Source: a virus. From it: a DNA stretch of 20,078 nucleotides. This document shows, in pieces, positions 1 to 20,078 of this stretch. The stretch lies in UHGV virus genome UHGV-1836283, one strand, 5' to 3'. Within the stretch, counting starts at the first letter, position 1, and every line of letters begins with the position of its first letter. A program made the position numbers and the translations under genes. A model generated the notes under the pieces. That model did not search any database. It was not told the origin of the DNA and saw only the letters and a program-made list of their open reading frames with translations.

Positions 1-1
1 C

Positions 2-133: not shown

Positions 134-168
134 AATTCTCCCAAAGAATAACGTGCAAGCAGCAAAAT

Positions 169-186
169 ACGCCCCATAAGGGGCGT
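169..186. terminator. Bidirectional rho-independent terminator-like hairpin just downstream of tfa
   Basis: Perfect 7-bp GC-rich stem ACGCCCC/GGGGCGT with 4-nt loop. A-run before and T-rich run after on the plus strand; on the minus strand the stem is followed by UAUUUUG, 5 nt after the tfa stop. Confidence 0.6.
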
Positions 187-190
187 TTAT

Positions 191-1494: not shown

Positions 1495-1497
1495 GGA

Positions 1498-2082
1498 TTA
1501 CTCCGGATATTTAAAAATTACGTAGGTATGCGAAGGGCAGAGTTTGTTAAGCACGCACTCGACAACGGTGTCGCCCCAGATACGCAGTGCGGAATCACAG
1601 GGATCGCCACATGTCATCCAGGTGGTGTTGGTGGCGGCTGGCATGTTGACCTGCCAGTAATACCGCCATTCCGGCGCATTCACTGCGTCAGTACAGGCCG
1701 ATGAGCAGGTGAACGTGCTTTTATCGTATCGCGTGATAGTGGCGTCTGGTCTGCCCAGGGCAGCAAGCTGTGCAAGGTAAAAATCCTCATTGATGCCGCC
1801 CGCCAGATTAACCTTCGCATCCAGCCGTTGCTGACGCTGGCGAAGGGTCTGTGTCCCTGCGGGAATACATTCATCCGGCAGACCGCACAGACGCTCCCAG
1901 CGGTTTATCAGTTCAGTGGTGGTGCGCGGATCCAGCTCCCGCATCAGGGCATCCGCACGCTGATGAACGCGGGTTAATGAAGGTGCCGCACCGGCAATCG
2001 CCGGATCGCTGGCTGACCATGCAGGACCGGGCGGCAACAGTGCCGATAACAGGCGGATGTAATCATCGTTTGTCACGTCCAT
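1498..2082 (-). CDS. Mu gp48-like tail/baseplate protein (DUF2313, YmfQ-like)
   Basis: 194 aa; N-terminus [22 protein letters not shown] characteristic of the family; sits between baseplate J and the tail fibre as in Mu. Confidence 0.75.
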
Positions 2083-3131: not shown

Positions 3132-3546
3132 GCGTTATCGCACTCCACAGATCATCAAAAGAAATCATTACCGGTCCGTCACGACGCCAGAGAGTGATAC
3201 TGTTACCCAGTTCATTAATCCCGGTGCGGCGGATATCCAGATCAATACGGGACACCACGCCGTCATCAATCATCCATTGCAGGCATTCGCGGATATACCC
3301 CCTTACCGTCTGCACCAGCTGATTGGTCAGTTTGCTGCGCTGAAGCAGCCACAGTCGGGAGCCGTAACGGTCATTCTGTACCGCAGGCCAGGTATCCCCC
3401 CACCATCCCATCGGGACATCGGCGTTGTCATCAGGCTCCGCCCGCCGCCAGGTAAACAGGGAAATCACCACGGCGCGGGTCAGCGGATCCAGCTGTGCGC
3501 TGGCGCAGGTGCGTTTACCGTTCACCGTCAGCCACAGTTCCATCAT
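3118..3546 (-). CDS. Phage GP46-family baseplate protein (Mu gp46-like)
   Basis: 142 aa; recognised family pattern and conserved position between gp45 and gp47 homologues. Confidence 0.75.
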   Translation of the reverse strand: MMELWLTVNGKRTCASAQLDPLTRAVVISLFTWRRAEPDDNADVPMGWWGDTWPAVQNDRYGSRLWLLQRSKLTNQLVQTVRGYIRECLQWMIDDGVVSRIDLDIRRTGINELGNSITLWRRDGPVMISFDDLWSAITHGGQ

Positions 3547-4091
3547 GCCTCCATCGCTTTATCAGGTTTGTCGGTGTTACTGCCCTGACCGTTCTCTCTG
3601 TGACGATGCCCGTTATAGGCAAGCCGCATCGCTGACATGGTGGTACCGCCGGAGTCGCACAGGTCTTTCACCTGTCCGGTCACTTCCAGGTCCATTTCAA
3701 AACGTGCTCTGGGCGCATTGCGAAACGTGATCGTTTTACCTGCACCGTCCACCACGATCCCCTCCCGGGTCAGCGTCACAGACTGCCCCTGATCGTCATA
3801 GACAGCCACCTCACCCGTCTGCAGCCCTTTCAGGCGGTAGCGCCGGTCCGACACCGTAACAACCACCGCATGAGAACGGTCGCCATCCGGAAACAACACC
3901 ACCGCTTCCGCACCGCTGTTTGCCCTTGCGGTAAAACCGTAGGGTTCAAGATGTTCAACCCCGGCTTTGGGTTCACCGGCAATCAGGGACACATCCACGG
4001 TCTGACATTTCGTGGCGGCACTGATGCTTTTCACCACTGCCCGCCCAATCAGGCCGAGGAGTTGTCGCTGCATGGCTTCAATCGTCCTCAT
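3543..4091 (-). CDS. Baseplate assembly protein V / central spike (Mu gp45-like)
   Basis: 182 aa; gpV-like N-terminal region; 4-nt overlap with the next gene. Confidence 0.8.
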   Translation of the reverse strand: MRTIEAMQRQLLGLIGRAVVKSISAATKCQTVDVSLIAGEPKAGVEHLEPYGFTARANSGAEAVVLFPDGDRSHAVVVTVSDRRYRLKGLQTGEVAVYDDQGQSVTLTREGIVVDGAGKTITFRNAPRARFEMDLEVTGQVKDLCDSGGTTMSAMRLAYNGHRHRENGQGSNTDKPDKAMEA

Positions 4092-5170
4092 CAGAACGGG
4101 TCCTCCTGTACTCTGGCTTTTTTCTTTTTCCGCGCGCCGGGGGCTTCGGGTTCAGGCAGATAAGCATCAGGTGGGCCGACACGGATTTCCGTCAGGGTGC
4201 CGTTCTGGTCCTGAGTAAACGTGACTTCCGAAACAAGCAGTTCGGTATTGTCGAAACCACAGACCGGATCAAAGACAATCACCCGCTGGTTGGGCTGCCA
4301 CAGCGTACCGTTACCCTGTCGCCAGCCCTGCACCACATAGGTGGTTTCATCCGTCCGCGCCGCCCGTTGCCGGGCTTCAAAGTCAGCACGCGCAATACAG
4401 CCTGCCCCCGTAGCCTGCCCTGTCTGCCTGATATACATCGGACGGTAACGGGCAATAAATGCGTCCTCTGTGCGGGCCCGCAGCGCGGTGGTGGTGGCCT
4501 CACCGAAATCATCGTCGTTTCCGGCACGCTGCCCCGCCACCTGGTAAACAGAAAACCGCTCCCGGATACTCTTCTCCGTATCGCAGGAAAGGATGTTTTC
4601 CCCGAGTACCAGCGCAGTATGTGCCCGCGTTGAGCCAATACCGCCAATCACCAGCCTGCCGTGCGGGTCGTCGTAAGCCAGTGCCTGCTGCTGACCGAGT
4701 ATTTTGTTGATTACCTCAATCACCGTTTCACCGTGATCAGGCTGAACATCAGGAATAACACCCGACGGCGCACCGCTGTTCACCACCTCAATGCCGAAAG
4801 GCGCAGCAAGCGCCTGCGCAATCTGCACCAGCGAGCGTCCGTTAAACTGTGTCGGTTCGGCTGCACAGTCAATCAGGTCAGCCGTCAGACTACGTCCGGC
4901 AATACCGGTGCTGACCGAACGGGAATCGTAACGAACGGGCGTCGCCTCCACCCAGCCGGTGATCACCAGCTCATCACCAATCAGCACTTCCACTTTTGAA
5001 CCGTTTTTAATGCGCGGCTGAAGCGTGGTGATACCCTCATCTCCCGGCCACTGGCGGGTGATCTCCACACTGAAATCCCGCGCCAGCCGTTCAATACCGG
5101 CACCGATGCGCACCGATGTCCAGCCATTCCACTCCCGGCCATTTACCCGTAGCGTGACATTGTCGTTCAT
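4091..5170 (-). CDS. Baseplate hub protein (Mu gp44 / P, late control D family)
   Basis: 359 aa; MNDNVTLRVNGREW… N-terminus; conserved position; start/stop overlap with neighbours. Confidence 0.8.
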   Translation of the reverse strand: MNDNVTLRVNGREWNGWTSVRIGAGIERLARDFSVEITRQWPGDEGITTLQPRIKNGSKVEVLIGDELVITGWVEATPVRYDSRSVSTGIAGRSLTADLIDCAAEPTQFNGRSLVQIAQALAAPFGIEVVNSGAPSGVIPDVQPDHGETVIEVINKILGQQQALAYDDPHGRLVIGGIGSTRAHTALVLGENILSCDTEKSIRERFSVYQVAGQRAGNDDDFGEATTTALRARTEDAFIARYRPMYIRQTGQATGAGCIARADFEARQRAARTDETTYVVQGWRQGNGTLWQPNQRVIVFDPVCGFDNTELLVSEVTFTQDQNGTLTEIRVGPPDAYLPEPEAPGARKKKKARVQEDPF

Positions 5171-6495
5171 TGCACTGGCACCTTCAGAGGGATCACCGGC
5201 ACAAAGCCGGGATGCGTAATGGCATTACGCCGGATAATGTCCGCGTCACGCGCCGCGTTATCAAACCAGGTCGCCGCCAGCACCAGCGCGGGTAAAACTT
5301 CATCCGGTGTGCGCTGAATGATCCGTGCAGACTGTTCAAGGCGCGTGTTGATATCCGCATTCAGATCTGCTTTCACCCGGCGCAGCGCCAGAAACAGCGC
5401 ATCGCTGGTTGTACGGGACAACTCCTTATCAATTGCCGTATTCAGTGTGTCGCGAATGTCAGTCAGTTCTTCCCACGTCGGCAGGTCAACCGTGTTTTTC
5501 ACCGCCGGTGCATTGTTCAGTGCCGGATGCGTGACGGAAGGCCAGCCAGTGCTCTGCGCGGGTGTTGTTGCCTGCCCCACTGCGGCATTCTGCATCACCG
5601 CGGAAGTTGTTGGCGCAGGCAATCGGGTGACGGCATACGCCGCTTCGCTGATTGCGGTCGTACGAAGGGTGCTGGCAACCACGTTACGCTGCTGCGTCGC
5701 CGTGGCGGTGGTTTTACTGTCCGTTTTCCAGACGCCGCGCGGTTGCAGATCGCTGCCGAGGCTGACACCGGAAAGCGTTTTGATCATGGTGACCAGGTCG
5801 CTGGCGTTACCATAAAGGCGTTTCCCGGTACGCCACATTTTCTGCACCTGCTCAACGAAATTTTTGCCTGACGATGGCGGCGGCAGAAGTACCGAGATAT
5901 CCCCCTGCAACAGCCTGGCGGCATCCGATACGGCAGAATCCACCACTTTCATCGCATCAGAAATATACCCAAGCATTGTGCCGGCATTACCGACGACGTC
6001 GTTCTGCACAAAATCTGCCACGCCATCGATACTGAAACCACTGAAACTGTCACTGATGCAGTCATCCAGTGCAGAACAGGATGACATCAGCGTCTGCGCC
6101 GTCGCCGCACCTGATGTGGGGTAAGAGAGTTCTCCCGCTTCGACAAACTTCAGGTCAAAGCGGACAATACGTCCTTCACTTTTCGATGTGCTGACCCGAA
6201 CTTCCCCGTCAACACAGACTTTCAGCTCACCGTAAGTCGGATGGACAAGCGTGCCGGGACCGGGTTTATTCAGCGCTTCAATCAGGCGATCGCGCTGGTC
6301 AAAGCAGTCATCTCCCACCACATAAGCTGTGATGGACGGGCGGAAAGTGACTTTTCCCAGATCTTCGGTATAGGGTTTGTCGCGGTTCGGATATTCGTGT
6401 GTTTCCACACGACGGCCGGTTCCCGCACTTTCTTCTTCAACCTTAAACGGCACACCTCGAAATGACGCGTCCTGAAGTCTGTCTTTCCACGTCAT
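5167..6495 (-). CDS. DNA circulation protein (Mu gp43 / N-like); start moved to the internal ATG at 6495
   Basis: N-terminus MTWKDRLQDASFRGVPF… from the ATG at 6495 is preceded by GGAG. The ORF-track start at 6537 would make the protein run through a terminator hairpin. Confidence 0.8.
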   Translation of the reverse strand: MTWKDRLQDASFRGVPFKVEEESAGTGRRVETHEYPNRDKPYTEDLGKVTFRPSITAYVVGDDCFDQRDRLIEALNKPGPGTLVHPTYGELKVCVDGEVRVSTSKSEGRIVRFDLKFVEAGELSYPTSGAATAQTLMSSCSALDDCISDSFSGFSIDGVADFVQNDVVGNAGTMLGYISDAMKVVDSAVSDAARLLQGDISVLLPPPSSGKNFVEQVQKMWRTGKRLYGNASDLVTMIKTLSGVSLGSDLQPRGVWKTDSKTTATATQQRNVVASTLRTTAISEAAYAVTRLPAPTTSAVMQNAAVGQATTPAQSTGWPSVTHPALNNAPAVKNTVDLPTWEELTDIRDTLNTAIDKELSRTTSDALFLALRRVKADLNADINTRLEQSARIIQRTPDEVLPALVLAATWFDNAARDADIIRRNAITHPGFVPVIPLKVPVQ

Positions 6496-6510
6496 ATAAA
6501 CTCCGTACAT

Positions 6511-6532
6511 AAAAAATCCCACCGGAGTGGGA
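6511..6532 (-). terminator. Intra-operon rho-independent terminator/attenuator between tape measure and gp43 genes
   Basis: Minus-strand RNA: stem TCCCAC/GTGGGA (loop UCCG, extendable by wobble pairs) followed by UUUUUUAU, 23 nt after the tape-measure stop. Confidence 0.5.
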
Positions 6533-6555
6533 CTCATTAACAGATTAATTTTTCA

Positions 6556-8391
6556 TTACCTGCCAAAGCGCGTATAGCCAACATCATGGCTGACATCAAA
6601 ACCGCTGGATCGCGTTTCCATAACCCGCATACCCGGAGGCGAATTCACAAAAGAGACCTTGATCTCACCATCAACTTTTGGCGCAGAAGCTTTGTTAATC
6701 ATGAAGGGATTTGGGCCTGTGGCACCGGAGGCGTTGTTTGACTGAGCCAGATCTACCGCCGGATAAGGTTTGTATCCCCGCGCCGGTATTCCCGTCCCAT
6801 AAGCATCATAAGCACCCGCGCCCCACTGCGCAGAGTTAATGGCATCGACCGTGTCACCGGAACTGTCGGTAAACCATTCAATAATCGGCTTCAGCTTATC
6901 CCACATATCCTGAAACCACTTAACAACCGGTCCCCAGTTATTGATCACCATCCCCAGCGGCGACCAGGCAAAAACCTTCTTCAGAAGTTCCCAGCCAGCC
7001 TCAAAATAAGGACTAATGGTTTCCCAGAGTTTCTTAAAATAAGGTCCGACAACATCCCAGTTAGTGATAATTAATCCCGCAGCCAGGGCTATCGCCGTCG
7101 CAATCATGCCAATCGGCGTCATCGACATGATCCTGCTGACAATACTGATGGCACCGCCAACGCCCATCAATCCCAGTTTCAGAATCGCAAGACCGGCAGC
7201 AAGCCCGACGACGCCGCGAATAACCCGGGGATTTTCATCCGCAAACTTCGTGAATTTCTCCCCCAACTCCCCCAGCCATTGCGTGATATTTTTGGCGTCA
7301 CCAGAAAATGCGCCGCCAATAGCCGCAAGGCCGTTAGTTGCGGTCCCCGTCATTGCCTCCCACAGGTTGGACAGCGTACCAAGCTGGGCCTGAACACGTT
7401 TATTCAGGCTGGCCTGTTTATTCATCTTCTGCTGGATCTGATCGTAGCCATCCTTTCCTTTATCGATTAGTGCATTGACCACCTGAAGGGTTTCGGCATC
7501 ATCACCAAATATTGCCTTAAGTACACCTGTTCGCTTAACGTCGGTCAGTTTTCGCAGCTTTGCCAGTTGCCTGAACATGTTATCAAGACCGCCAAAACTC
7601 CCTTTGCCGTCAGTAAAATCGAGCTGCACTCCGAGTTTCTGGCGGGCCATGACTTTATTGACGTCCCTGATTTTCTTAACGCTTAATCCGGACTGAATAA
7701 CTTTTCGCAGGGCATTACCTGCCGACTCCCCGTTCATCCCCATCTGATCCATCATGACGCTGATAGGGGCAAGGCTCTGTGCAGCCTGAAGACCGTCCTT
7801 ATTCACCATCTTCAGAACAGAACTGGTTTTAGTGAAGAAGGACAACATGTTGGTATCGTCAACGCCCAGATAAAACGCTTTCTGGATAGTGTCGAACAGC
7901 CCCATCATGTCTTCTGACGCCGTTCCGGTAGCATCCTGCATCTTTGCAGCAAACTCGGCTGCCGATTCCGGTGTTTTTTTCAGTTGTACCGCAAGATAAG
8001 CTGTCGCTTTACCCACACCACCCAGAATGTTTTCTGCTGGGATCCCCTGACGCACCAGCATCTGCATCATGTTCTGGAAATCAGCCGTTGTACCGGGTAG
8101 CTGGTTACCCAGGCCAATAGCCAGTTTATTGATGTCCTGAAAGCTCTTTCCAACCTCGCCGTTCGCATCCATCATGGCGACTTTCAGCCCGGTGGCGGCG
8201 TTTTCCTGATCGGCATAAGATTTCAGGGAAAGCGTCAGACCCGCTGCCAGTCCGCCACCAAGCGCCAGCCCACCCTGTGACGCTTCTTCCGCCTGGCGTT
8301 TAAATCCCCGGATTTTCTTTTGCATTTTCGACAGCGCCGGAGAAAGCCTGTCGACACCGGTGATCAACGCCTTAAGCTCAAATTCAGCCAT
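6556..8391 (-). CDS. Tail tape measure protein (Mu gp42-like)
   Basis: 611 aa; Ala/Gly-rich hydrophobic segments (GVVGLAAGLAILKLGLMGVGGAISIV) typical of tape measure proteins; located right after the chaperone pair. Confidence 0.85.
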   Translation of the reverse strand: MAEFELKALITGVDRLSPALSKMQKKIRGFKRQAEEASQGGLALGGGLAAGLTLSLKSYADQENAATGLKVAMMDANGEVGKSFQDINKLAIGLGNQLPGTTADFQNMMQMLVRQGIPAENILGGVGKATAYLAVQLKKTPESAAEFAAKMQDATGTASEDMMGLFDTIQKAFYLGVDDTNMLSFFTKTSSVLKMVNKDGLQAAQSLAPISVMMDQMGMNGESAGNALRKVIQSGLSVKKIRDVNKVMARQKLGVQLDFTDGKGSFGGLDNMFRQLAKLRKLTDVKRTGVLKAIFGDDAETLQVVNALIDKGKDGYDQIQQKMNKQASLNKRVQAQLGTLSNLWEAMTGTATNGLAAIGGAFSGDAKNITQWLGELGEKFTKFADENPRVIRGVVGLAAGLAILKLGLMGVGGAISIVSRIMSMTPIGMIATAIALAAGLIITNWDVVGPYFKKLWETISPYFEAGWELLKKVFAWSPLGMVINNWGPVVKWFQDMWDKLKPIIEWFTDSSGDTVDAINSAQWGAGAYDAYGTGIPARGYKPYPAVDLAQSNNASGATGPNPFMINKASAPKVDGEIKVSFVNSPPGMRVMETRSSGFDVSHDVGYTRFGR

Positions 8392-8566
8392 GTGTGCGTT
8401 TCTCCTGCTCTATCCTGTTTGCCTGACTGACCAGTAAGGGAATTTCACTGATCGGCATATTCAGCAATTCGAAAGGATTAATGCGCCAGTAACTGGCGCA
8501 GTCAAAGAAGCGATCAGTGAGGTATTCAGCCGTCAGGCCTGGAGGAAAAAACCGGCCACAAGCCAC
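8384..8566 (-). CDS. -1 frame extension of the tail assembly chaperone (gpT-like part of a G/GT-type fusion)
   Basis: 60-codon ORF in the -1 frame relative to 8533..8802, overlapping its 3' end and the tape-measure start by 8 nt; a slippery heptamer lies in the overlap. Confidence 0.6.
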   Translation of the reverse strand: MACGRFFPPGLTAEYLTDRFFDCASYWRINPFELLNMPISEIPLLVSQANRIEQEKRTHG

Positions 8567-8802
8567 GCCGCTGCATTCAGGTCTGCCGGAGACATCTGGT
8601 CGACAGAGCTTTGCGGCACTTTCGCCAGCCGCACGATGTATTTCGATACCACATGCGCCAGAAGTCTGACGGACTCATCCTGATTCATCTGGTAGGGATA
8701 TCCCAGCTCGCGGACATCTTTCCCGGTGGGCTCATCAAACTCCAGTACGGAGAGTGTCTCGCCATGAGCGGTAATCGGTTTCTTTAACTCAAGCTCTTTC
8801 AT
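8533..8802 (-). CDS. Tail assembly chaperone (Mu gp41-like)
   Basis: 89 aa acidic protein between tube and tape-measure genes; start overlaps the tube gene stop. Confidence 0.75.
   Translation of the reverse strand: MKELELKKPITAHGETLSVLEFDEPTGKDVRELGYPYQMNQDESVRLLAHVVSKYIVRLAKVPQSSVDQMSPADLNAAAWLVAGFFLQA
8545..8551 (-). other. Programmed -1 ribosomal frameshift slippery site U UUU UUC
   Basis: Minus-strand TTTTTTC in X XXY YYZ register of the chaperone frame (…GCC GGT TTT TTC…), 10 nt before its stop. A -1 shift gives …VAGFF-PPGLTAEYL…. Confidence 0.6.
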
Positions 8803-9158
8803 TACTGGTAATCCCCTTCTTCACCGTGGAACTCAAGATCAACCGTGCCTTCTTCGGCATTATGGTTCGCTTCGCCGTGCAGCCAGGCAGACGACAGTAC
8901 ATAGACCTGACCGTTCGCCAGCTCGGCAGTGATTGTCATCTCATCAGACGAGGTGATTTTGTTCACCGGAAAATTCTTCGGCACCTTGAAGGTCCCTTTG
9001 ACATAAGGCGCACGGTGAGTTTCCTTGCGGTCCACTGAACCGTCCAGGCCGATGATGTCATCATTGACCGTCCTGTTCATGGGCACCTCAATGCCGCCGG
9101 TCAGCGATAGCTGCTGACCGTCAATTTTGAAATAACAGGTTCCCCCGATACGGGCCAT
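8802..9158 (-). CDS. Tail tube protein (Mu gp40 / M-like)
   Basis: 118 aa; directly downstream of the sheath gene with start/stop overlap. Confidence 0.85.
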   Translation of the reverse strand: MARIGGTCYFKIDGQQLSLTGGIEVPMNRTVNDDIIGLDGSVDRKETHRAPYVKGTFKVPKNFPVNKITSSDEMTITAELANGQVYVLSSAWLHGEANHNAEEGTVDLEFHGEEGDYQ

Positions 9159-10654
9159 TATGCAGACTCCTCTGAATACTGAAGACGGAACTGGTTAACC
9201 ACGGCAAAGACACGCAACTGGTTAACATAGTCAGGCGGGAACAGCGTGTTCAGGCGGTTCGGATCGCTGGCATCACGCTCCACAACCAGGTACTGCTTAA
9301 ACAGTTCGTAGTTTTCCACGATCCCCGCACGCTCAAGCTGACGGTAGGTTGCCAGCAGTTCCCCTTTGATCACCGCCGGGGTGACAATCGCCTGACCGGG
9401 ACCAAAGCGGGTACCGTCACTGGCAAGCTTGTGACGCCCGTACTTACTGGTAATGACGGATTTCAGTTTGCGCAGTACATACGCGCTGGTATGCAGTGTC
9501 TCACTGTCGAGGTAGCTGTTATCCGCAACCCCGTAAGCGTTTTTCCTGTACGTGGTGACATCACGCTGAATGCGCAGTACCCCGCTTTCGACATACGCCG
9601 TTGCCACGCCATGAGACAGCAGGGTCTGTTGTTCGGTCATCGTGAACCGTTTCCCCTTCGGCGCAGGCAGCATACCCACCATCTCACCGGTCTGCGTGGG
9701 ACGTGCCGGATCGTTGCGGATAAACACCGCTGCGCGGGCGGTACGGCTGGCTGCCAGCTCGTCGGCAGGCGTCTGGGTCTCTTTTTCGTACCCCGCCAGG
9801 GTGATGTGCTGCTGGTTAAACTGGTCACCTGCGTTCACCAGTTCTGACAGTGTGCCGGCCTTTGCCGTATACACATGACCATACAGCTGACGCGCATAGC
9901 TCCAGCGACCGCTGGTATCGTTCATCTCGGTCACCAGCGTGTTAACAGAGGCCGTGTCGTTGAACGGCAGACCGATATAATCAAACGGCTCATCCGCCAT
10001 TGCAGCCACCGCGCCGGTGAGAACCGGAGCGCCCGTTCCGGCGGTCCCCGTCGCCACGGCAATCTGTACGCCCGCTGGCAGCACTTCGCCCCCACCGAAG
10101 CCGTAGTAATTGAGGCTGACAGGAATTTCATTCCCGCAAAGCCCCTTATGGCGAGCGGTCAATGTAACCACACCAGCCGAAGATGAGGCCGTAAACGGCA
10201 GGGCCGGAACGGCATTGATGGCATCTTTGATACTGCTGGCAATCGTCGCGACGTTATCGCCGTTGGTCACCGGTGCCTGCACGCGGGTACGTCCCACATA
10301 AACATTCACCGTGCCGGTTTCGGTTGCTGCCCCGGTCACCGTCAGCGTAACTGTTGCCGCCGCGCCTGTGGATTCAGGAACGGCAATCACATACAGCTCG
10401 CCAAACGGGTCGGTCTGGCGATAAGCCTCGACCATACGCGCCAGCTGACTTCCCGCACCACAAATCTGGCGTGCATAGTCTGCCGACGGCATCAGTACCA
10501 GACTGTTGGCAACAATCTCTGCACCGTTATTGGCATGACCAATCAGCAGCGATGCTCCGCTGTCCTGTGCAGTATTCGCCGCCTGGTTATCCATTTCCGC
10601 ATAAAACAACGGAACCAGCGTATTCGACGGAATGGTGTTAAAGCTTATCGTCAT
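9158..10654 (-). CDS. Contractile tail sheath protein (Mu gp39 / L-like)
   Basis: 498 aa; sheath-like sequence and conserved sheath-tube-chaperone-tape measure order. Confidence 0.9.
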   Translation of the reverse strand: MTISFNTIPSNTLVPLFYAEMDNQAANTAQDSGASLLIGHANNGAEIVANSLVLMPSADYARQICGAGSQLARMVEAYRQTDPFGELYVIAVPESTGAAATVTLTVTGAATETGTVNVYVGRTRVQAPVTNGDNVATIASSIKDAINAVPALPFTASSSAGVVTLTARHKGLCGNEIPVSLNYYGFGGGEVLPAGVQIAVATGTAGTGAPVLTGAVAAMADEPFDYIGLPFNDTASVNTLVTEMNDTSGRWSYARQLYGHVYTAKAGTLSELVNAGDQFNQQHITLAGYEKETQTPADELAASRTARAAVFIRNDPARPTQTGEMVGMLPAPKGKRFTMTEQQTLLSHGVATAYVESGVLRIQRDVTTYRKNAYGVADNSYLDSETLHTSAYVLRKLKSVITSKYGRHKLASDGTRFGPGQAIVTPAVIKGELLATYRQLERAGIVENYELFKQYLVVERDASDPNRLNTLFPPDYVNQLRVFAVVNQFRLQYSEESA

Positions 10655-10808
10655 CGGTATTCACCTTTTTATTCACGCGCCGGATATCACCCGCTGCTTC
10701 ACGGCGCAGCCAGTAGTTGTTCTCGTCAACATTTCGCCCTTCGGCGGGCAAAAGGTCGCCGCGGGCAGGGTCAGGCACTGACCGCCCTTTAACAGGTTTG
10801 ACAAACAT
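10638..10808 (-). CDS. Small hypothetical protein (56 aa), below the ORF-track size cut-off
   Basis: ATG at 10808 preceded by GAGGA at 5-nt spacing, 8 nt after the upstream gene stop; TAA at 10638-10640 overlaps the sheath start by 17 nt. Translation MFVKPVKGRSVPDPARGDLLPAEGRNVDENNYWLRREAAGDIRRVNKKVNTDDDKL. Confidence 0.45.
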   Translation of the reverse strand: MFVKPVKGRSVPDPARGDLLPAEGRNVDENNYWLRREAAGDIRRVNKKVNTDDDKL

Positions 10809-10816
10809 GAGGATCC

Positions 10817-11377
10817 TCAGGAAGGAAGGGTTATTTCGGTGTGATGTTCGATATCGCCGTCAGGCCCGTTACCGGGCTCGAGATAATCAACATCAATCGC
10901 CAGCGTTTGCAGTTCATCCAGACTGTTCAGATCATCCTGCTGGCGGGTATCGTCTTCAGTCAGCTCGCTGATGACCGAAAAATCGAACTGATAAATCAGC
11001 TCATGACGATTCAGATCCAGCAGCGTGCCGCCGTCATAGGTAATCGGGTTACCACACGCTTCCGGGTTCCAGCCCAGCAGAGCCTTAAAGAGCATCTGCC
11101 GGACATCGTCCACCACATCATACGAGGCAAACTGACCGCGCTCATCACGCCCGTTACTCAGTATGACAACCACGGAGAAGCCCTCTTTCAGCTCCTGCCA
11201 GTAGTCGGTCTGGCTTTTGTTTTCTCCCGGAGAGTCATCACCCGGTACCACATACGCCGCCGGGAGTCTCAGCTTTCCGACCTCCGGCAGATTTTTGAAC
11301 TGTGCCGCGCCTGCCACCCGGTTTTCAAAATACGGACAGCGGGCACGCAGTGCAGCAATAACGGGCGTCAGTTTCAT
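10817..11377 (-). CDS. Mu gp37-like virion protein (DUF1834-type)
   Basis: 186 aa; recognised family pattern and position upstream of the sheath gene. Confidence 0.65.
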   Translation of the reverse strand: MKLTPVIAALRARCPYFENRVAGAAQFKNLPEVGKLRLPAAYVVPGDDSPGENKSQTDYWQELKEGFSVVVILSNGRDERGQFASYDVVDDVRQMLFKALLGWNPEACGNPITYDGGTLLDLNRHELIYQFDFSVISELTEDDTRQQDDLNSLDELQTLAIDVDYLEPGNGPDGDIEHHTEITLPS

Positions 11378-11880
11378 CTGTGTCGTCGCTCCGGCTTCAG
11401 TGATTTACGCAATTCCCGCGCCAGAAAATAGCGTGTCCAGCTGCGGTTCTTTTCAAGAGTTTCCACCATGAAGTTATTACGTGGAGCCAGTCGCCAGCCG
11501 CTGCCACCGGATGCACCACGATGATGGCCGCGACGACGCTTTGCCCCTCGCCTCACGCCATAGAACAAAAAAGCCGGATAAAAATCACCGGTGATACGGC
11601 GGTTTCCCTCTCCATTACGCTGGTTAGGGGCTATACGTGCCATAAAACCAGGGCGATGTTTACTGGCTCTGGGTACCATGTAACCAATTGAGCGAGCCAG
11701 GCGTCCGGTCTGATAACCGGGGTTTTCACCCGGTGCCGACCGCGCACGGCGCATCACCAGCCGACGGGCATCACGCATATGACGCTGACCAATCGTGACA
11801 AACGCCCGCCGGACATGGGCGCGGTTAAAGCGCATCTCCGCGGGCTGCTGAAAATCAACGTGCAAAAAGGAAGTCGTCAT
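11374..11880 (-). CDS. Virion morphogenesis / tail completion protein (HK97 gp10-like)
   Basis: 168 aa, very basic C-terminus; sits between head closure and tail genes. Confidence 0.6.
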   Translation of the reverse strand: MTTSFLHVDFQQPAEMRFNRAHVRRAFVTIGQRHMRDARRLVMRRARSAPGENPGYQTGRLARSIGYMVPRASKHRPGFMARIAPNQRNGEGNRRITGDFYPAFLFYGVRRGAKRRRGHHRGASGGSGWRLAPRNNFMVETLEKNRSWTRYFLARELRKSLKPERRHR

Positions 11881-12265
11881 TGTTGCCTCCGTGACTCTGC
11901 CTACATTCGCCCAGCTCCGTACACTCCAGCAGCAGAAAGCGCCGCGCTCCGTTCAGATCGCGCTGACGTTTCACCCGGTACACACTGTCACCGCAGACCA
12001 CCTCATAATCAGCGGTGATCCCCCGGCGGTAACGAATGGTGATGTAATGGGTGATGGCGTCTCCGGTCTGCGCGGTTTCCTGCCAGGTGGTGGCACTGGT
12101 CTGGATAACCTTCGCCCATGCCCGGAACGCAACCGGGTATTGAGGCTCCACGCCAAAGTTATCCGCGGGCATATCCACCCGCTGGCGGATCAGGACGCGT
12201 TTATTCAGTTCGCCGGGGTCCGGCAGAATGTAGGTTGCGCTGGTCTGCGCCTGACGAATTTTCAT
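11855..12265 (-). CDS. Head closure / head-tail adaptor protein
   Basis: 136 aa; family-like pattern (…AWAKVIQTSATTWQETAQTGDAITHYITIRYR…RFLLLECTE); follows the connector gene. Confidence 0.7.
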   Translation of the reverse strand: MKIRQAQTSATYILPDPGELNKRVLIRQRVDMPADNFGVEPQYPVAFRAWAKVIQTSATTWQETAQTGDAITHYITIRYRRGITADYEVVCGDSVYRVKRQRDLNGARRFLLLECTELGECRQSHGGNNDDFLFAR

Positions 12266-12585
12266 AGTGGTATAAGGCGATAAGGAACAACCAACCAGTT
12301 AAAACTCATTGGCAACTCCATTTTCTCAACGTCTGTAACCGTTGAGCGGTTTTCGTAGAAATGGCTGACAAGTAGCAGAAGCGCCAGCTTCACATCATCA
12401 GATATCACAAGCCCATCAGGATCATCCGCAGGCCTGTCATCTGCGGTTGCATACAACTTACGGTTAAGGAAGTTTTCCGTACGACTCTGAGCGGCCTTAC
12501 CAAGCAGTTCAAGCAACTCATCTTCATCAGAGAAATCATCATCCAGACGGAGCTGAAGCTTAATCTCTTCCATTTTTAACAGCAT
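12262..12585 (-). CDS. Head-tail connector (gp6-like); start moved to ATG at 12585
   Basis: MLLKMEEIKLQLRLDDDFSDEDELLELL… matches the gp6-like connector family. AGGAGG lies 4 nt upstream of the ATG at 12585; the ORF-track start at 12630 runs through a hairpin and A-run. Confidence 0.7.
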   Translation of the reverse strand: MLLKMEEIKLQLRLDDDFSDEDELLELLGKAAQSRTENFLNRKLYATADDRPADDPDGLVISDDVKLALLLLVSHFYENRSTVTDVEKMELPMSFNWLVVPYRLIPL

Positions 12586-12595
12586 AAAACCTCCT

Positions 12596-12637
12596 GTGCC
12601 CGCCAGAACGCGGGCACAAAAAAACCGCATTACGCGG
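12596..12637 (-). promoter_or_regulatory. Hairpin pair after the major capsid gene: weak terminator plus strong stem abutting the next RBS
   Basis: Minus-strand RNA: CCGC-GUAAU-GCGG + U7, then 8-bp stem GUGCCCGC/GCGGGCAC, then AGGAGG-UUUU-AUG of the connector gene. Confidence 0.45.
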
Positions 12638-12663
12638 CGTGCTGTATTACGTAAAAAGACTAA

Positions 12664-13893
12664 TCAACCACCAACGCTACCTTTCCCCACCAGCGCTTTA
12701 ATGGCAGAGGTGTCTTCCAGGATACAGTCAAAACGATGGAAGGCCAGAAAACCGGTCTGATCATATTCCGCGTAACGCTCAACCAGACGTTTAAGAATCA
12801 TGTATCGCACACGACGGATAATGAAGCGATCAAAGTCACCACAGAACATGAATTTTTTACCCGCCCCGATATCATCAATTTCCTGATCAATGACATACGG
12901 TACATTCAACACTGAAGCAGGTGCCACACCAACAATATCCGGCAACCATAAAGGGCGTCCCTGACCGTCTTCCATCTCACTGATCAGTTTCAGCGTATTA
13001 TCGTTAAACGCCAGGCGGAATTTCGGCCCGCGACGATATGCAGGATCAATGCTGTGTTTCAGAGCCAGAATTTCCTGCCACTTCACCGTATTTGCCGCGG
13101 CAGTCTGTGTTGTGCCGGTCACAGATGCGACCAGCCCTTTGGGTTGTTTAGGCGTACCAGCACCAGTTCCCTGAATCAGATAACGGGCTTCACCACGACC
13201 AATACGTTCAGCAATACGACGGGCAAGATAAGCTTCCATATCGATCGCGCTGTCCTGCAGCAACTCATTAGACACACGAATGATTTTCGATGTCATTTTG
13301 AGCGCCCCAAGACTTCCCATACCGAAATCGGTGTCTTCTTCACCGGCTTCTTCATTTTCGCCCAGCAGAACACCAACTTCGGAAGTACCATCAGCTGTTG
13401 CCCACTCCATAGTGCGACCGTCAGAAGTGGTAAGAATCTGCGCCACACTGGCGATGCCACCGTAGGACTTCATCTTCTCAACAACTTTCGCCAGGAATGT
13501 TTCTGGTACGGTATATCCGCCCTTTTCATCCTGAGCTACGCCCTGGGCACGAAGTTCACGCAACGCCTTTCGTTCTTCTGATGTCAGCTCACTGGCACCG
13601 TGACGCATCCACTTATCAAAAACCTGAGCTCGTTTCTCATCCTGTTGCGGATTGTTTTCCGGATCAAGATTCTGACGCTGCTCTTCCTCATTGCTTTCAA
13701 TGTACGCCTGATCCTGACGACGCAGTTCTTCTTCGCGTGCAATTCGTTCATCAAGCGCTTCCAGTTCGGATTTTGCTTTGTTCCACTCAGTGCGCTGCTC
13801 TTCCGTCCATGCGTTATCACCAATTTTTTCATTCAGGGCACGCATGTCAGTTGCGATAGTATTACGTTTCTGTTTCAGTTCATGCAGTTTCAT
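12664..13893 (-). CDS. Major capsid protein, HK97 family
   Basis: 409 aa; charged coiled-coil N-terminal region (delta-domain-like) and HK97-type body; preceded by AGGAA RBS. Confidence 0.9.
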   Translation of the reverse strand: MKLHELKQKRNTIATDMRALNEKIGDNAWTEEQRTEWNKAKSELEALDERIAREEELRRQDQAYIESNEEEQRQNLDPENNPQQDEKRAQVFDKWMRHGASELTSEERKALRELRAQGVAQDEKGGYTVPETFLAKVVEKMKSYGGIASVAQILTTSDGRTMEWATADGTSEVGVLLGENEEAGEEDTDFGMGSLGALKMTSKIIRVSNELLQDSAIDMEAYLARRIAERIGRGEARYLIQGTGAGTPKQPKGLVASVTGTTQTAAANTVKWQEILALKHSIDPAYRRGPKFRLAFNDNTLKLISEMEDGQGRPLWLPDIVGVAPASVLNVPYVIDQEIDDIGAGKKFMFCGDFDRFIIRRVRYMILKRLVERYAEYDQTGFLAFHRFDCILEDTSAIKALVGKGSVGG

Positions 13894-13903
13894 GATGTTT
13901 CCT

Positions 13904-14506
13904 TTACGCGTTAAGAAGGGTCAGGACGCGCTCACGCGCCATACGTTGATTAATGGCTTTCTGTAGCGCGCCGCTGTTGCGCGCCTCCTGCCATGCTTTC
14001 ATGGAGCGAACAGCCGAGTCAGCCTCCTGATAGGCAGGATATGTCACAGGACTGACATCCAGCAGACGGGAAAAGCGGGTTATCTCGCGAATAACAACCC
14101 CGTCCTCATCCTGATACCACTCCTCGCCGTCACGGGCGACACGGAAAGCAAAAGATGACTGGTTAATATCTCCACGTTGCATCGGGGCCAGCACCAGATC
14201 ACGAATGGTCTGTGTCTCCGGAGCCTGGATGTCATAGCGCAATCCGCGCTCATCAACTGAAAGATTCAGCGTGCCTGCTGCACTACGCCCAAGAATAAAA
14301 TTAGGATCGTGGTTAAACAGTGCGCGTACATCATCACCAAGCACATCGTCAAAAGCGCCGGGCCGGATGATTTCGCGGAATGAACCAAATATCAGCTCAG
14401 AACGACAGTCAAACACCGATCCATAACCGATAATGTGCGCAGGGTTATCGTCATGCCGCTCAGCACGCACCTCACCGCTGTAACAACGGATTTCACGGTC
14501 ATTCAT
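13904..14506 (-). CDS. Prohead protease, HK97 family; start moved to ATG at 14506
   Basis: HK97-family protease sequence (…AHIIGYGSVFD…). ATG at 14506 (MNDREIR…) has a GAGGGA RBS and overlaps the portal stop (ATGAATGA); the ORF-track start at 14563 lacks an RBS. Confidence 0.85.
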   Translation of the reverse strand: MNDREIRCYSGEVRAERHDDNPAHIIGYGSVFDCRSELIFGSFREIIRPGAFDDVLGDDVRALFNHDPNFILGRSAAGTLNLSVDERGLRYDIQAPETQTIRDLVLAPMQRGDINQSSFAFRVARDGEEWYQDEDGVVIREITRFSRLLDVSPVTYPAYQEADSAVRSMKAWQEARNSGALQKAINQRMARERVLTLLNA

Positions 14507-15725
14507 TGGTTTTTCCCTCATCTTTTTTTGGGGGCTTAAAATCTCCTGCCGGGTTAGCAGCATTCACGCTTACCAGCATCTCATCCAGCCCTTCAACCGG
14601 ATTCATATCCTCGAATGCGCGGGCCTCATTACGGCTCATCCATCCATCGGTAATAGCGAAGTGATAGAATTGCGCGCGCTCCTGCGGAGTTCCGCGTAAA
14701 AGCCCCGTCAGATTGAACCTGACGTAATACCCGGCGGCTAACTCAGCGCGGGTAAACAAGCGACGGTTAAGCTCCTGCTCCCAGTTCGTCACCCACGGCA
14801 TCATCGTGTAGCGGACAAACTGAATCGCCTGCGCAGAAATATTGGAGAAGGTGGCTTTTTCGAGGTCATTAATCATGTGCGCAGGAATATTGAAAATACC
14901 GGCAATCATTGAACGGTTCAGTTTCATCATGTCAATGATCTGAGCGTCAACTGGCGACACAGTCAGTGCCTTGTAATCCAGATCGGCTGGCAGCAGCATG
15001 GTTTTGTTTTCCTGGCTGCGTAACGCCTGCGATGCCTTCTGCCACTGATCTTTAAGCCAGCCCCAGCTGTCCTTATTGAGTCCGCTTTTAACGGATACTA
15101 TCCCCGCCGGACGGGCATTACCGCTGAAGAAGCTTTCTGTGTATTTCTGACCGCTCATCCCCATGCCTATTGTTTCGGCATGTTGCATAATCGGACTCAG
15201 CCCCATCTTCTGATTATTACCCAGCGCACGGATGTGGATCATATCGTCGGGGCTGATCGCAAACGCCCCATATTCGTTGTACAAACCGTAGGTGTATCGG
15301 CCACCAGTATTCATCAGCGTCGTTTCCCACGGCATACAGCAATCCAGGGATATGACTTCACCGCGACGATTACGTTTCACCCAGGTATACCCATTCCCCC
15401 AGCCAAGGATGTGACGTTGCTTCAGTTCGCGCCATTTGTAACTGGTTTGCCAGGTATTGGGCTCATCATGAACCAGATAAAACGCCGGATGATCGCGTGC
15501 GGGCTCAACCTTCCCATTGTGCCTGCGCATAACATGCAACGGCATCTGGGCAAGGCTGGAAGACAGGACATAGATACAGGAATACACCGCAGCCAGTTTC
15601 ATCGCAGTTTCAGGACTGACATAAACGTCTGCCCGGAACAGCCCATCAGTATCAACGGCATCCCCGGTTATCGGGGTGGAAGGATTCTCCAGTGATTTAC
15701 TTCTGAACAGAGCATCAAGCAGCAC
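14499..15725 (-). CDS. Portal protein, HK97 family
   Basis: 408 aa; recognised portal family; the start codon at 15725 is GTG. Confidence 0.9.
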   Translation of the reverse strand: MLLDALFRSKSLENPSTPITGDAVDTDGLFRADVYVSPETAMKLAAVYSCIYVLSSSLAQMPLHVMRRHNGKVEPARDHPAFYLVHDEPNTWQTSYKWRELKQRHILGWGNGYTWVKRNRRGEVISLDCCMPWETTLMNTGGRYTYGLYNEYGAFAISPDDMIHIRALGNNQKMGLSPIMQHAETIGMGMSGQKYTESFFSGNARPAGIVSVKSGLNKDSWGWLKDQWQKASQALRSQENKTMLLPADLDYKALTVSPVDAQIIDMMKLNRSMIAGIFNIPAHMINDLEKATFSNISAQAIQFVRYTMMPWVTNWEQELNRRLFTRAELAAGYYVRFNLTGLLRGTPQERAQFYHFAITDGWMSRNEARAFEDMNPVEGLDEMLVSVNAANPAGDFKPPKKDEGKTNE

Positions 15726-15876
15726 GCGTCCCCCTTCTGGCCATAGCCAGTGCGCCCACCAGCAGTAAACCGCCGGACAGCATCAGAGCCGGAGCCATAC
15801 CAAACTGCAGGTAAAACCCGCACGTAAGCAGGCCAAAACCAGCCAACCCGATAACATCAGCAATTAGTGATTTCAT
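15715..15876 (-). CDS. Small predicted two-helix membrane protein (53 aa) between terminase large subunit and portal
   Basis: ATG overlaps the terminase stop (ATGA); stop overlaps the portal start. Translation [53 protein letters not shown]: two hydrophobic stretches, basic C-terminus. No strong RBS. Confidence 0.4.
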
Positions 15877-17606
15877 AGAATTAAGAGAACATCGTCCGGA
15901 TCAAGAGATGAGAGGAAATCGTCGGGTTCTTTGAGCATTGCCCGACCGATCGCCATAATCAGTGCAACCGCACCATCGATTTTGTTTTCCGCCTGCTCCT
16001 TGACAGGCTTCACCACATCATCGTTACCCGGAATGGTTTTGCCGACCACGTTGCCGATACACCAGGTCATGATGGGATTGCCGTCATGATGAAAGCGCCC
16101 CGATTCAATCGCCGCTTCCAGCTCTTTCATCGGATCGGACATGTTGGTGTAGTTCTGAATGATGGTGATGGGGTTCAGGTCTTCATCAGCAAGGTCATGC
16201 GACAGCCCGGTCGCCCCGAAGGGGTCGATGGGTGACTCACTGACCGGGCTGATTTTGTTCGCCGCTTTGGCCTCCTCGAGGATGTAGCGATAATCCACCT
16301 CCGCACCAGCGGTAACAGTCAGAACGCCCATTTCCACCCATTTCTGAAAGCGTTCGGCTGTCCGGCGATCTTCATTTTTCTCGACGCTGTACACCGTGTC
16401 ATACGGTACCCAGAAACGCGGGGCCACACTGTAGTAATGCGTTTTACCGTCAATCTCGCGGGTATAAAGTCGCGCCATGCTGTTCATATCCAGCTTACGC
16501 GCCAGGTCAAAGGCCAGAATGCACGGCTGCCCCTCGAACTGCTCAAGGGTCAGTGATTTATCCTCGCAGCTCTGCCAGCTCACCAGGTTGAAATACGCCG
16601 AACGCGCCGACACCCAGATATTGAGGTGTTTTGTTTTAAAGACGTTTGCCAGACGGGCGTTATTTTTCGCACGCTGCTGCTGACTTAACAAAAATTCGCG
16701 ATAAACCGACACGCCAATATTCGGGTTGGCTTTTTCCAGCACCTGCGGGTCGGTCCAGTCATCGCCTTCGTCAACGGTATAGATGATCCCGAACAGTTCA
16801 TCGTTGGGTACCGAACCGTTGAGCATCTCGATAACTTCCCGCCGCTTGTCGTAGCACGGCCCCTCAATGTTGTACCCGGCGGTGGTGATGGCCCACATCA
16901 GTGGCTGACGTCGCGCCCCCATCCCGGTAAGCATCGTGGTATAAAGCGCATCGGTGGCGTGCTCGTGATATTCATCCACCACCGCACAGTGGGGTGATGA
17001 ACCATCACCGGGGTTACCGATCAGCGGTTCAAACCGCGCGCCATCCTCCGGACGGTTCATGTTTGAGGCGTTAACCTCAATCCCGAACGCTTCCGTCAGC
17101 ATGGGTGTGCGTTTACACATCAGTCGCGCCGGGCGAAAGACTTCCCACGCCTGTTTCTCTGTCGTGGCACCGGAATACACTTCCGCGCCAAACTCGTTAT
17201 CACAGGCAAAACAATACAGGGCGACACCGGCAGAGATTGCCGATTTGCCGTTCTTACGGGGGATTTCGGTATACACCTCCCGGAAGCGGCGCAGCCGGGT
17301 ACCTTTATTGACCCAGCCAAACGCACAGCAGATCACAAAGAGCTGCCACGGCTCCAGCGTGATGGGCATCCGTTTGAATGCCCACTCACCCTTGGTATGC
17401 GGCAACAGCTGAATAAATTTGGCGGCCCGTTCAGCCAGGTCCTTGTCGAAGCGGTAACGAAACGACTTACTTTTTTCCGCCATCAGGTCATCAAGATGGC
17501 GCTGGCAGGCCTGAATCACAAACTGGCAGGCCACAATCTTTCCGCGCACGACATCACGGGCATACTGATTGGCTGCATTTACGTTGGGGTAAGATTTCCG
17601 GCTCAT
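15873..17606 (-). CDS. Terminase large subunit
   Basis: 577 aa; Walker A-like motif EIPRKNGKS near the N-terminus; size and position after the small subunit. Confidence 0.9.
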
Positions 17607-17619
17607 GATTCGATGATTT

Positions 17620-18105
17620 TCAGATTGTCAGAAACGGGTTAGTGGCTTTCTTCTTCCCCGCCAGGCCAATCAGACGCTGGCGGCTGCTGGGGTCGAGTCC
17701 GAGCATTGCCCCCGTGCTGCTCATCTCGGACTCCTGTTCTTTTTTGGCGGTCAGCTCCGGATTTTTGACCATGCCGCCCATTGCACCGGTGATGGTGTTG
17801 CCCTGTCTGGCAATATTTTTCACGGCACGTCGCCAGAATTCATAGGCCACACACCACCGCTCAAGTACCGCCAGGTCAGTCACGCACAGCAGGCCCTGAC
17901 CGCAGAGTTCTTTGGTTGTCAGTTGCCACATGATCGTGGCGAGAGGGAGATCTTCTTCAGCGAACCACTCCGGTGGCTCAACACCTTTGATGGGCGTAAA
18001 AACAGGTTCATCTTTATTCAGGGCTCGCTTGCCGGGGTTTCCGGCCAGCGCCTTGCGCGCCGTTGGCTTGGGGCGACGCCCGGAACGCCCCGCCGTTCCA
18101 GCCAT
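17620..18105 (-). CDS. Terminase small subunit, P27 family; start most likely ATG at 18105
   Basis: P27-type N-terminus [27 protein letters not shown]; AGGAG lies 9 nt upstream of the ATG at 18105. The ORF-track start at 18114 is a GTG with no RBS. Confidence 0.85.
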
Positions 18106-18144
18106 ATGCGGCACTCCTGGTTAAATTTCATTTTTCGCGGGTAT

Positions 18145-18204
18145 AAAAAAACGATGGGGCGGGCAGTCCGGAAGACGTCAGGTCACAGGGATTTGACCCG
18201 CCCC
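18145..18204 (-). promoter_or_regulatory. GC-rich dyad with U-tract between HNH and terminase genes: candidate cos/packaging site or terminator
   Basis: 8-bp inverted repeat GGGGCGGG (18156-18163) / CCCGCCCC (18197-18204) around a 33-nt loop containing a nested GGTCA/TGACC dyad. On the minus strand it is followed by AUCG + U7. Confidence 0.4.
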
Positions 18205-18230
18205 TCCCCTCAGACAGTTGAGAATTATTA

Positions 18231-18581
18231 TCACTTTAACCGTTCACGGGCCGTCTTCGCCTTATGACACGGCCAGCACAGACTCTGCAGATTACTGTCA
18301 GCATCAGTGCCGCCATGCGCTTTAGGGATGATGTGGTCAACAGTTTTCGCCTCACGCACCACACCAGAACGCAGACATAACTGACACAGGCCTTTGTCAC
18401 GCTTCAGGACACGCGCGCGGATACTGTCCCACTTCGAACCGTAGCCGCGCTGATGACGGGATTGTCCAGGTTTGTATTGCTTCCAGCCTTCGCTTTTGTG
18501 GCTTTCGCAATAGCCTGACGGGTCAGTGGTGGTATTACGGCAACCTCGAGCACGGCAGGCTTTCGGGATTCGTGGCGGCAT
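18231..18581 (-). CDS. HNH endonuclease (terminase-associated type)
   Basis: 116 aa; Cys-rich N-terminus and HNH motif …DHIIPKAHGGTDADSNLQSLCWPCHKAK…; GGAGA RBS 9 nt upstream; immediately upstream of terS. Confidence 0.85.
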   Translation of the reverse strand: MPPRIPKACRARGCRNTTTDPSGYCESHKSEGWKQYKPGQSRHQRGYGSKWDSIRARVLKRDKGLCQLCLRSGVVREAKTVDHIIPKAHGGTDADSNLQSLCWPCHKAKTARERLK

Positions 18582-18665
18582 ATGTACTAATCTCCGATTT
18601 ATCCAAATTTAACTGCCATAATGCCGACATTCTCTGCCATTGTTGGCTCCGTTTATCCGTTAAAA

Positions 18666-18735
18666 GGGATATCAGTTAAGTTATCCCGTGTAGGGTATAA
18701 ACCATTATCAAAGCCACTCTGTAGGGAGTGGCTTT
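18666..18735. promoter_or_regulatory. Two terminator-like hairpins in the non-coding stretch between IS2 and the HNH gene
   Basis: Hairpin A: GGGATA(18666-18671)/TATCCC(18682-18687), followed by UUUUAA on the minus strand. Hairpin B: AAGCCACTC(18711-18719)/GAGTGGCTT(18726-18734), followed by TTTGT on the plus strand. Confidence 0.35.
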
Positions 18736-18758
18736 TGTAATGACAATAAAAAGCCCCG

Positions 18759-18799
18759 TAGACTGGCCCCCTGAATCTCCAGACAACCAGTATCACTTA
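18759..18799 (+). repeat. IS2 left terminal inverted repeat region (IRL)
   Basis: Matches the IS2 left terminus as I recall it; exact IR length not verified. Confidence 0.7.
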
Positions 18800-18849
18800 A
18801 ATAAGTGATAGTCTTAATACTAGTTTTTAGACTAGTCATTGGAGAACAG

Positions 18850-19215
18850 ATGATTGATGTCTTAGGGCCGGAGAAACGCAGACGGCGTACCACACAGGAA
18901 AAGATCGCAATTGTTCAGCAGAGCTTTGAACCGGGGATGACGGTCTCCCTCGTTGCCCGGCAACATGGTGTAGCAGCCAGCCAGTTATTTCTCTGGCGTA
19001 AGCAATACCAGGAAGGAAGTCTTACTGCTGTCGCCGCCGGAGAACAGGTTGTTCCTGCCTCTGAACTTGCTGCCGCCATGAAGCAGATTAAAGAACTCCA
19101 GCGCCTGCTCGGCAAGAAAACGATGGAAAATGAACTCCTCAAAGAAGCCGTTGAATATGGACGGGCAAAAAAGTGGATAGCGCACGCGCCCTTATTGCCC
19201 GGGGATGGGGAGTAA
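18850..19215 (+). CDS. insC: IS2 transposase OrfA (InsC)
   Basis: 121 aa [40 protein letters not shown]… with GGAGA RBS; the ORF-track start at 18805 is an upstream over-extension. Confidence 0.95.
19167..19173 (+). other. IS2 A6G slippery motif for -1 frameshifting (InsCD fusion)
   Basis: AAAAAAG at 19167-19173 in the InsC/InsD overlap. Confidence 0.8.
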
Positions 19216-20078
19216 GCTTAGTCAGCCGTTGTCTCCGGGTGTCGCGTGCGCAGTTGCACGTCATTCTCAGACGAACCGATGACTGGATGGATGGCCGCCG
19301 CAGTCGTCACACTGATGATACGGATGTGCTTCTCCGTATACACCATGTTATCGGAGAGCTGCCCACGTATGGTTATCGTCGGGTATGGGCGCTGCTTCGC
19401 AGACAGGCAGAACTTGATGGTATGCCTGCGATCAATGCCAAACGTGTTTACCGGATCATGCGCCAGAATGCGCTGTTGCTTGAGCGAAAACCTGCTGTAC
19501 CGCCATCGAAACGGGCACATACAGGCAGAGTGGCCGTGAAAGAAAGCAATCAGCGATGGTGCTCTGACGGGTTCGAGTTCTGCTGTGATAACGGAGAGAG
19601 ACTGCGTGTCACGTTCGCGCTGGACTGCTGTGATCGTGAGGCACTGCACTGGGCGGTCACTACCGGCGGCTTCAACAGTGAAACAGTACAGGACGTCATG
19701 CTGGGAGCGGTGGAACGCCGCTTCGGCAACGATCTTCCGTCGTCTCCAGTGGAGTGGCTGACGGATAATGGTTCATGCTACCGGGCTAATGAAACACGCC
19801 AGTTCGCCCGGATGTTGGGACTTGAACCGAAGAACACGGCGGTGCGGAGTCCGGAGAGTAACGGAATAGCAGAGAGCTTCGTGAAAACGATAAAGCGTGA
19901 CTACATCAGTATCATGCCCAAACCAGACGGGTTAACGGCAGCAAAGAACCTTGCAGAGGCGTTCGAGCATTATAACGAATGGCATCCGCATAGTGCGCTG
20001 GGTTATCGCTCGCCACGGGAATATCTGCGGCAGCGGGCTTGTAATGGGTTAAGTGATAACAGATGTCTGGAAATATAG
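19173..20078 (+). CDS. insD: IS2 transposase OrfB (InsD), normally made as InsCD fusion by -1 frameshift
   Basis: 301 codons with DDE-type integrase core (…WLTDNGSCY…[11 protein letters not shown]…); stop TAG at 20076-20078. Confidence 0.95.

Follow-up and report, generated by a model that had tools for sequence, protein, structure and literature searches.

Genes and Features of the Locus

The stretch of DNA analysed here, referred to as the window, is 20,078 nucleotides in length. Its right part contains the terminase genes of a prophage, an HNH endonuclease gene, a non-coding spacer, and an IS2 element that runs to the end of the window. The features are listed below by window position and strand.

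15873..17606, minus strand: terminase large subunit (Pfam TerL_ATPase and TerL_nuclease)
17620..18114, minus strand: terminase small subunit (TerS), P27 family (Pfam Terminase_4)
18115-18230: candidate cos region between the TerS and HNH genes, containing the position of the SfV genome end (18172)
18231..18581, minus strand: HNH endonuclease gene (Pfam PF01844, E = 1.1e-16; so annotated in relatives)
18582..18758, no strand: non-coding spacer of 177 bp from the HNH start codon to IS2, identical in alignment to the empty site of relatives
18710..18735, minus strand: hairpin 2, AAAGCCACTC-TGTAGG-GAGTGGCTTT (loop also written CCTACA), intact in a fold of window 18700-18800
18746..18758, minus strand: remnant of hairpin 1, which is split by IS2, comprising the 3' arm CGGGGCT and the T-run TTTTTAT (terminator scan of the IS2-free locus L001, and folds)
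18754..18758, no strand: left copy of the target-site duplication, CCCCG, with the second copy directly after the right end of IS2 in the matching contig L019
18759..20078, plus strand: IS2 (IS3 family), the first 1320 of 1331 bp (identity to the copy of E. coli APEC O78; Pfam HTH_Tnp_1 and rve; length from L019)
18759-18800, plus strand: left inverted repeat of IS2 (sequence)
18850-19215, plus strand: orfA, 121 aa (Pfam HTH_Tnp_1)
19167-19173, plus strand: A6G -1 frameshift site (sequence)
19173-20078, plus strand: orfB, 301 aa (Pfam rve and rve_3)

The HNH gene is the last gene before cos and, in the direction of the late transcript, the first gene on the structural side of the insertion. 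Further leftward on the minus strand are the portal, S78 protease, and HK97-type capsid genes, identified by Pfam, and the gene tables place Mu-like sheath, tube, and baseplate genes after the capsid. All structural ORFs are open in window 120-18758. Window 1191-18172 is 97.8% identical to phage SfV, and phages SfI, SfII, and SfIV are similarly close. Based on this closeness, the window is assigned by sequence to an SfV-like temperate myovirus with an HK97-type head and a Mu-type tail, of which it is the late half.

Position 1 of the linear SfV genome maps to window 18172, between the HNH and TerS genes. This position is bracketed by the inverted repeats GGGGCGGG (18156-18163) and CCCGCCCC (18197-18204). 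The cos site most probably lies here, untouched by IS2.

The left end of the window is unusual. Megablast matched no complete E. coli genome to window 1-119, and a look-up of the tail-fibre assembly protein did not find this end elsewhere. The minus strand of the segment holds a gene fragment with a match to DUF6996 (E = 6e-19) and no obvious start codon. A mosaic junction is present at 119/120, where relatives that are 100% identical have the 3' end of an O-antigen-type acyltransferase gene instead.

The IS2 left inverted repeat (TAGACTGGCCCCC... / TAGACTGGCCCCCTGAATCTCC) starts at window 18759 on the plus strand. All 1320 nucleotides of window 18759-20078 are identical (1320/1320 bp, 100%) to the IS2 copy of APEC O78, and the right end of the element is 11 bp (GGGCAAATCCA) past the end of the window. 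The complete element, as read in L019 (assembly GCA_041024635.1), is exactly 1331 bp. The terminal inverted repeats are imperfect and approximately 41/42 bp in length, the right one ending ...GGGGCAAATCCA in L019. The OrfAB fusion is open and encodes 409 aa with no internal stop. The repeat lengths and the orfA, orfB, and A6G features agree with the published description of IS2 (PMC3299598). The APEC O78 copy ends ...GGAAATATAGGGGCAAATCCA and has a 5-bp duplication, CTGAC, on either side.

The element thus has the identity and length, the terminal repeats, the reading frames with frameshift, and the 5-bp duplication of IS2, copies of which are also carried by E. coli K-12. It is apparently complete and active, with all sequence features intact. 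Its transposase is directed away from the HNH gene and is antisense to late phage transcription.

Target Duplication and the Sequence Beyond IS2

The left boundary of the element is fixed independently of the IS2 comparison by IS2-free relatives. Over window 120-18758, five complete E. coli genomes match at 100% identity, and their matches end exactly at 18758. The empty site of IS2-free relatives reads ...ACAATAAAAAGCCCCG|CGAATACGAGGCTAAATCC..., and a single CCCCG is present in the empty site of locus L001. With IS2 starting at 18759 and the HNH start codon ending at 18581, the placement of the element 177 bp upstream of the HNH/terminase module, as given in a preliminary description of this DNA, is correct. 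No coding sequence is interrupted; the insertion is intergenic.

Only the left CCCCG copy is within the window, and the window ends inside IS2. The window alone could therefore not exclude an IS-mediated deletion or inversion with its boundary at IS2, a truncated prophage remnant on one side, and unrelated chromosomal DNA beyond. The right flank was read in a public E. coli assembly (GCA_041024635.1, contig JBFTAB010000002.1, here L019), which was found via the rarer variant of the portal protein carried by the window. Reverse-complemented, L019 matches window 4499-20078 (15,580 bp) with 0 mismatches. Past the window end it continues with GGGCAAATCCA, CCCCG, and then CGAATACGAGGCT..., so that the whole junction reads ...AAAAAGCCCCG-[IS2, 1331 bp]-CCCCG-CGAATACGAGG. 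The CCCCG at 18754-18758, proposed from the window as one copy of a target duplication, is thereby borne out: it is present at both ends of IS2 in L019, against a single copy at the empty site.

The 5,026 bp beyond IS2 in L019 are collinear with the empty-site relative AP022098, with 1 mismatch. In IS2-free relatives the genes beyond the site are, in backward late order, a 50-aa ORF, an Rz-like lysis protein, a GH24 endolysin, a holin, and an 80-aa ORF, continuing with a Q-type antiterminator (PF03589), DUF968, KilA-N, RusA, and the immunity region. The flank of L019 has the same gene order (Rz-like protein, endolysin, holin, orf80, PF03589 antiterminator, DUF968, and KilA-N) and was inspected as far as the Dam gene. 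The lysis genes and late regulator that the preliminary description expected upstream of HNH are thus directly beyond IS2, both in L019 and, at the empty site, in the relatives. Extension to the right, proposed there as a check, yielded the right end of IS2, the matching CCCCG, and the lysis and late-regulator genes. Unrelated non-phage DNA beyond IS2, considered as another outcome, is ruled out for L019 by the CCCCG duplication and by 5 kb of collinear sequence with the lysis and late-regulatory genes, and a deletion edge there is refuted by the same two findings. A deletion or inversion boundary is for these reasons extremely improbable.

A single-nucleotide difference was observed in the rusA region of L019 (~620; equivalent to L001 ~18185). 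The sequence is CGCCGC-CTTA, a 1-bp deletion compared with CGCCGCGCTTA in the IS2-free relative, and no rusA was called. The deletion may be a true frameshift or a sequencing error. Given this deletion in the non-essential rusA, other small defects outside the window may be present in the L019 prophage.

A misjoin induced by repeats during assembly, which would make the junction an artefact, was also considered. IS2 is multicopy; in complete E. coli genomes the median number of matching places is 3-5. L019 and the source of the window may be one and the same assembly, so that L019 does not count as independent confirmation. A misjoin would not, however, give an element of exactly 1331 bp, a perfect 5-bp duplication of a single-copy site, and collinear flanks, and we regard it as having almost no likelihood.

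The duplication and the collinear lysis and late genes point instead to simple transposition. IS2 almost certainly inserted in this way into a complete SfV-like prophage, and the site is neither a deletion nor an inversion boundary. The element would have moved by the normal copy-out-paste-in route of the IS3 family into the non-coding stretch that separates the lysis cassette from the HNH-cos-terminase genes, duplicating CCCCG.

The host prophage is common; WP4-S18-ESBL-09 and MS14385, for example, are near-identical strains free of IS2. In the IS2-free relative AP022098 (L016, L017) the prophage is approximately 37.6 kb and is integrated at the 5' end of dusA; the integrase adjoins dusA, and a dusA fragment is at the far end, approximately 37.6 kb away. 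With IS2, the prophage would be approximately 38.9 kb. Phage genome records that match the head and tail module, covering 54-85% of the window with identities of 96.5-97.8%, are 37.1-43.5 kb, and the predicted size gain from IS2 stays inside this range.

The insertion itself was found in none of the other collections searched. When each junction was compared by megablast with 5,426 complete E. coli genomes, 0 had the insertion. Exact patterns of the left junction and of the predicted right junction were absent from species-representative genomes, metagenome contigs, and viral contigs. A look-up of contigs by the HNH protein, which is very common (7,371 blocks), gave IS2-free places only. The insertion is rare and, since relatives match its flanks at 100% identity, evidently recent. 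Several apparent matches were examined and rejected. The sole junction match with 100% coverage, in strain a7, is another IS2 site inside an Rz-like gene. Whole-window matches in Z0117EC0098 and APEC O78 seem to include IS2, which in these genomes is elsewhere in or near the prophage.

Two further IS2 sites were located in the course of these comparisons. In APEC O78 (L012 9001-10331), IS2 is at the tail-fibre/invertase end of an SfV-like prophage and is flanked by CTGAC. In strain a7 (L030 ~5610-6940), it is in the Rz-like gene of a lambda-like prophage, beside a second IS3-family element.

Hairpins at the Site and Predicted Late Transcription Across IS2

A terminator scan and folds show two tandem hairpins at the empty site on the late-transcript (minus) strand. 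Hairpin 1 is composed of AGCCTCGT-ATTC-GCGGGGCT followed by TTTTATTGTC, and is scored as terminator-like (L001 13172..13153). Hairpin 1 and its T-run are kept in the alignment of relatives. The 5-bp target lies within the 3' arm of hairpin 1, and in window 18100-20078 the scan found no terminator-like site left. At the right junction of IS2 (L019 5633-5648), a new terminator-like hairpin, GGGGTGGATTTGCCCC, arises on the late strand from the IS2 terminal TGGATTTGCCCC together with the duplicated CGGGG, and is followed by TATATTT. An Rfam search of 17500-20078 gave chance-level matches only.

The hairpins belong to a widespread module. A mosaic boundary is present in the spacer at approximately 18652, and the sequence rightward of it is a lysis-cassette tail module composed of the hairpins, the 50-aa ORF, and the end of Rz (L001 13053-13420). 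This module was found in 2,646 of the 5,426 complete E. coli genomes. It is positioned at the end of lysis cassettes in many different lambdoid prophages, with mosaic breakpoints adjoining the hairpins. In five relatives (L012, L015, L020, L022, and L023), variable cargo occupies the interval from the lysis genes to HNH. The cargo is KilA-N, DUF6236, DUF6979, a 184-aa ORF, or KilA-N/P63C, and adds approximately 0.5-1.5 kb.

The hairpin at the end of lambdoid lysis cassettes may be a structural target for IS2. Bearing on this idea, the exact site is occupied in 0/5,426 complete genomes, and the IS2 of strain a7 is approximately 500 bp away.

The layout beyond IS2 is that of a late operon, with the Q-type antiterminator (PF03589) followed by the lysis and structural genes on one strand; in L019, all genes downstream of the antiterminator share that strand. 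Direct reading of L019 shows a terminator-like stem, AACCGC/GCGGTT, followed by TTTTATT approximately 110 bp past the stop codon of the Q-like gene. The lysis cassette and late promoter are physically split by IS2 from the HNH, terminase, head, and tail genes, as the preliminary description had proposed and as the gene order in L019 confirms. Within the late operon, the HNH, head, and tail genes would now be preceded by 1.3 kb of IS2 sequence, untranslated and antisense. A promoter scan of the 177-bp spacer and the left end of IS2 found no sigma-70-like promoter toward HNH. The HNH, terminase, head, and tail genes would therefore be wholly dependent on read-through from upstream of the lysis genes.

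If read-through fails, IS2 would be a strong polar block: the cell would lyse without virions, and the prophage would be defective. Several observations are in keeping with such a block. IS2 carries Rho-dependent terminators and silences downstream gal genes (PMC3737525), although our literature search did not establish which orientation of IS2 bears the galEP3 Rho-dependent terminators. HNH has no promoter-like site of its own upstream, and the right junction has gained a hairpin and T-run. The junction also turned up in none of the collections (complete E. coli, species-representative, metagenome, and viral), so there is no sign of spread of an IS2-bearing phage. Such rarity is equally expected of a very recent insertion with flanks 100% identical to relatives.

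Other evidence weighs against the block. Antitermination of the Q type would be expected to suppress polarity: Q-lambda is a documented polarity suppressor, and Q-loaded polymerase resists pausing and termination (PMC12360218). Late transcription must already pass the native terminator-like hairpin. The presence of this hairpin at the site in thousands of prophages suggests that resistance to termination is normal for the late transcription that reaches HNH. The gap takes up to approximately 1.5 kb of foreign genes in relatives, and no gene is disrupted by IS2. Defects predicted from prophage sequence are, moreover, poor predictors of failure and often do not stop packaging or transfer (PMC2669165). 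Taken together, these points make a complete block unlikely.

A further reading is an uncoupling of lysis from virion assembly, in which the lysis genes, upstream of IS2, would be fully expressed on induction while the packaging, head, and tail genes, beyond the untranslated IS2 and the new junction hairpin, were strongly reduced. We hold this, and the related idea of a hairpin target, to be rather improbable. If lysis is uncoupled in this way, the prophage would kill its host while making few particles, which would represent an early step of prophage domestication.

The reading favoured here is that late transcription from downstream of the Q-type antiterminator gene is expected to be resistant to terminators and to Rho. 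Late transcripts would cross IS2 with an efficiency that is at most reduced. On this basis, IS2 alone would more probably weaken virion production than abolish it, a functional reading whose chances we consider somewhat better than even. As a whole, the explanation by simple transposition together with weakened virion production is given a probability of roughly 0.75. An IS2 insertion in lambda, r32, is reportedly bypassed by N antitermination; this forms no part of the evidence.

The proposal that IS2 has made the prophage defective is not supported. The site is intergenic, the hairpin is native, relatives carry cargo in the same gap, and the size is within the range of the family. A prophage would be called defective on the loss or disruption of an essential gene, or on a proven inability to make virions; here the structural ORFs are open, and the lysis and late-regulatory genes are present. 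Defectiveness caused by IS2 is unproven and doubtful.

The value of the locus is mostly one of annotation: it documents a single IS2 insertion, recent and private, in an SfV-like prophage that is common in E. coli and integrated in dusA. The case also advises caution, as an intergenic IS alone is no ground for calling a prophage defective. The locus is in addition a natural construct, with IS2 in a Q-antiterminated late operon for which isogenic IS2-free relatives exist. This construct would permit a direct test of the suppression of IS2 polarity by a PF03589-type antiterminator.

Comparison with Known Systems

The prophage resembles SfV in the order of its late genes, namely Q, terminator, S-R-Rz-Rz1, HNH, cos, TerS, TerL, portal, protease, capsid, and Mu-like tail. 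In full, the SfV annotation runs Q, terminator, orf47, methylase, terminator, S-R-Rz-Rz1, and HNH. The two differ in the gap between Rz1 and HNH. In SfV this gap is 26 bp and has no hairpin module, whereas in the lineage of the window it is 223 bp, contains two hairpins, and now carries IS2.

Insertion sequences in resident prophages are commonplace, and the present one is ordinary and already in a public assembly. In Sp4 of O157 Sakai, nu1 is disrupted by an IS, which, as here, is in a resident lambdoid prophage. The Sp4 nu1 case, the Rz-like gene of strain a7, and the tail-fibre case of APEC O78 are all hits to coding sequences, whereas the insertion described here is intergenic.

The closest likeness in operon structure is to galEP3 (gal3), where IS2 is likewise between the promoter and the downstream genes of one operon. 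The difference is that the operon here is a phage late operon, in which a Q-modified, termination-resistant polymerase is expected. Polarity of the gal type may for this reason not apply to the insertion upstream of HNH.
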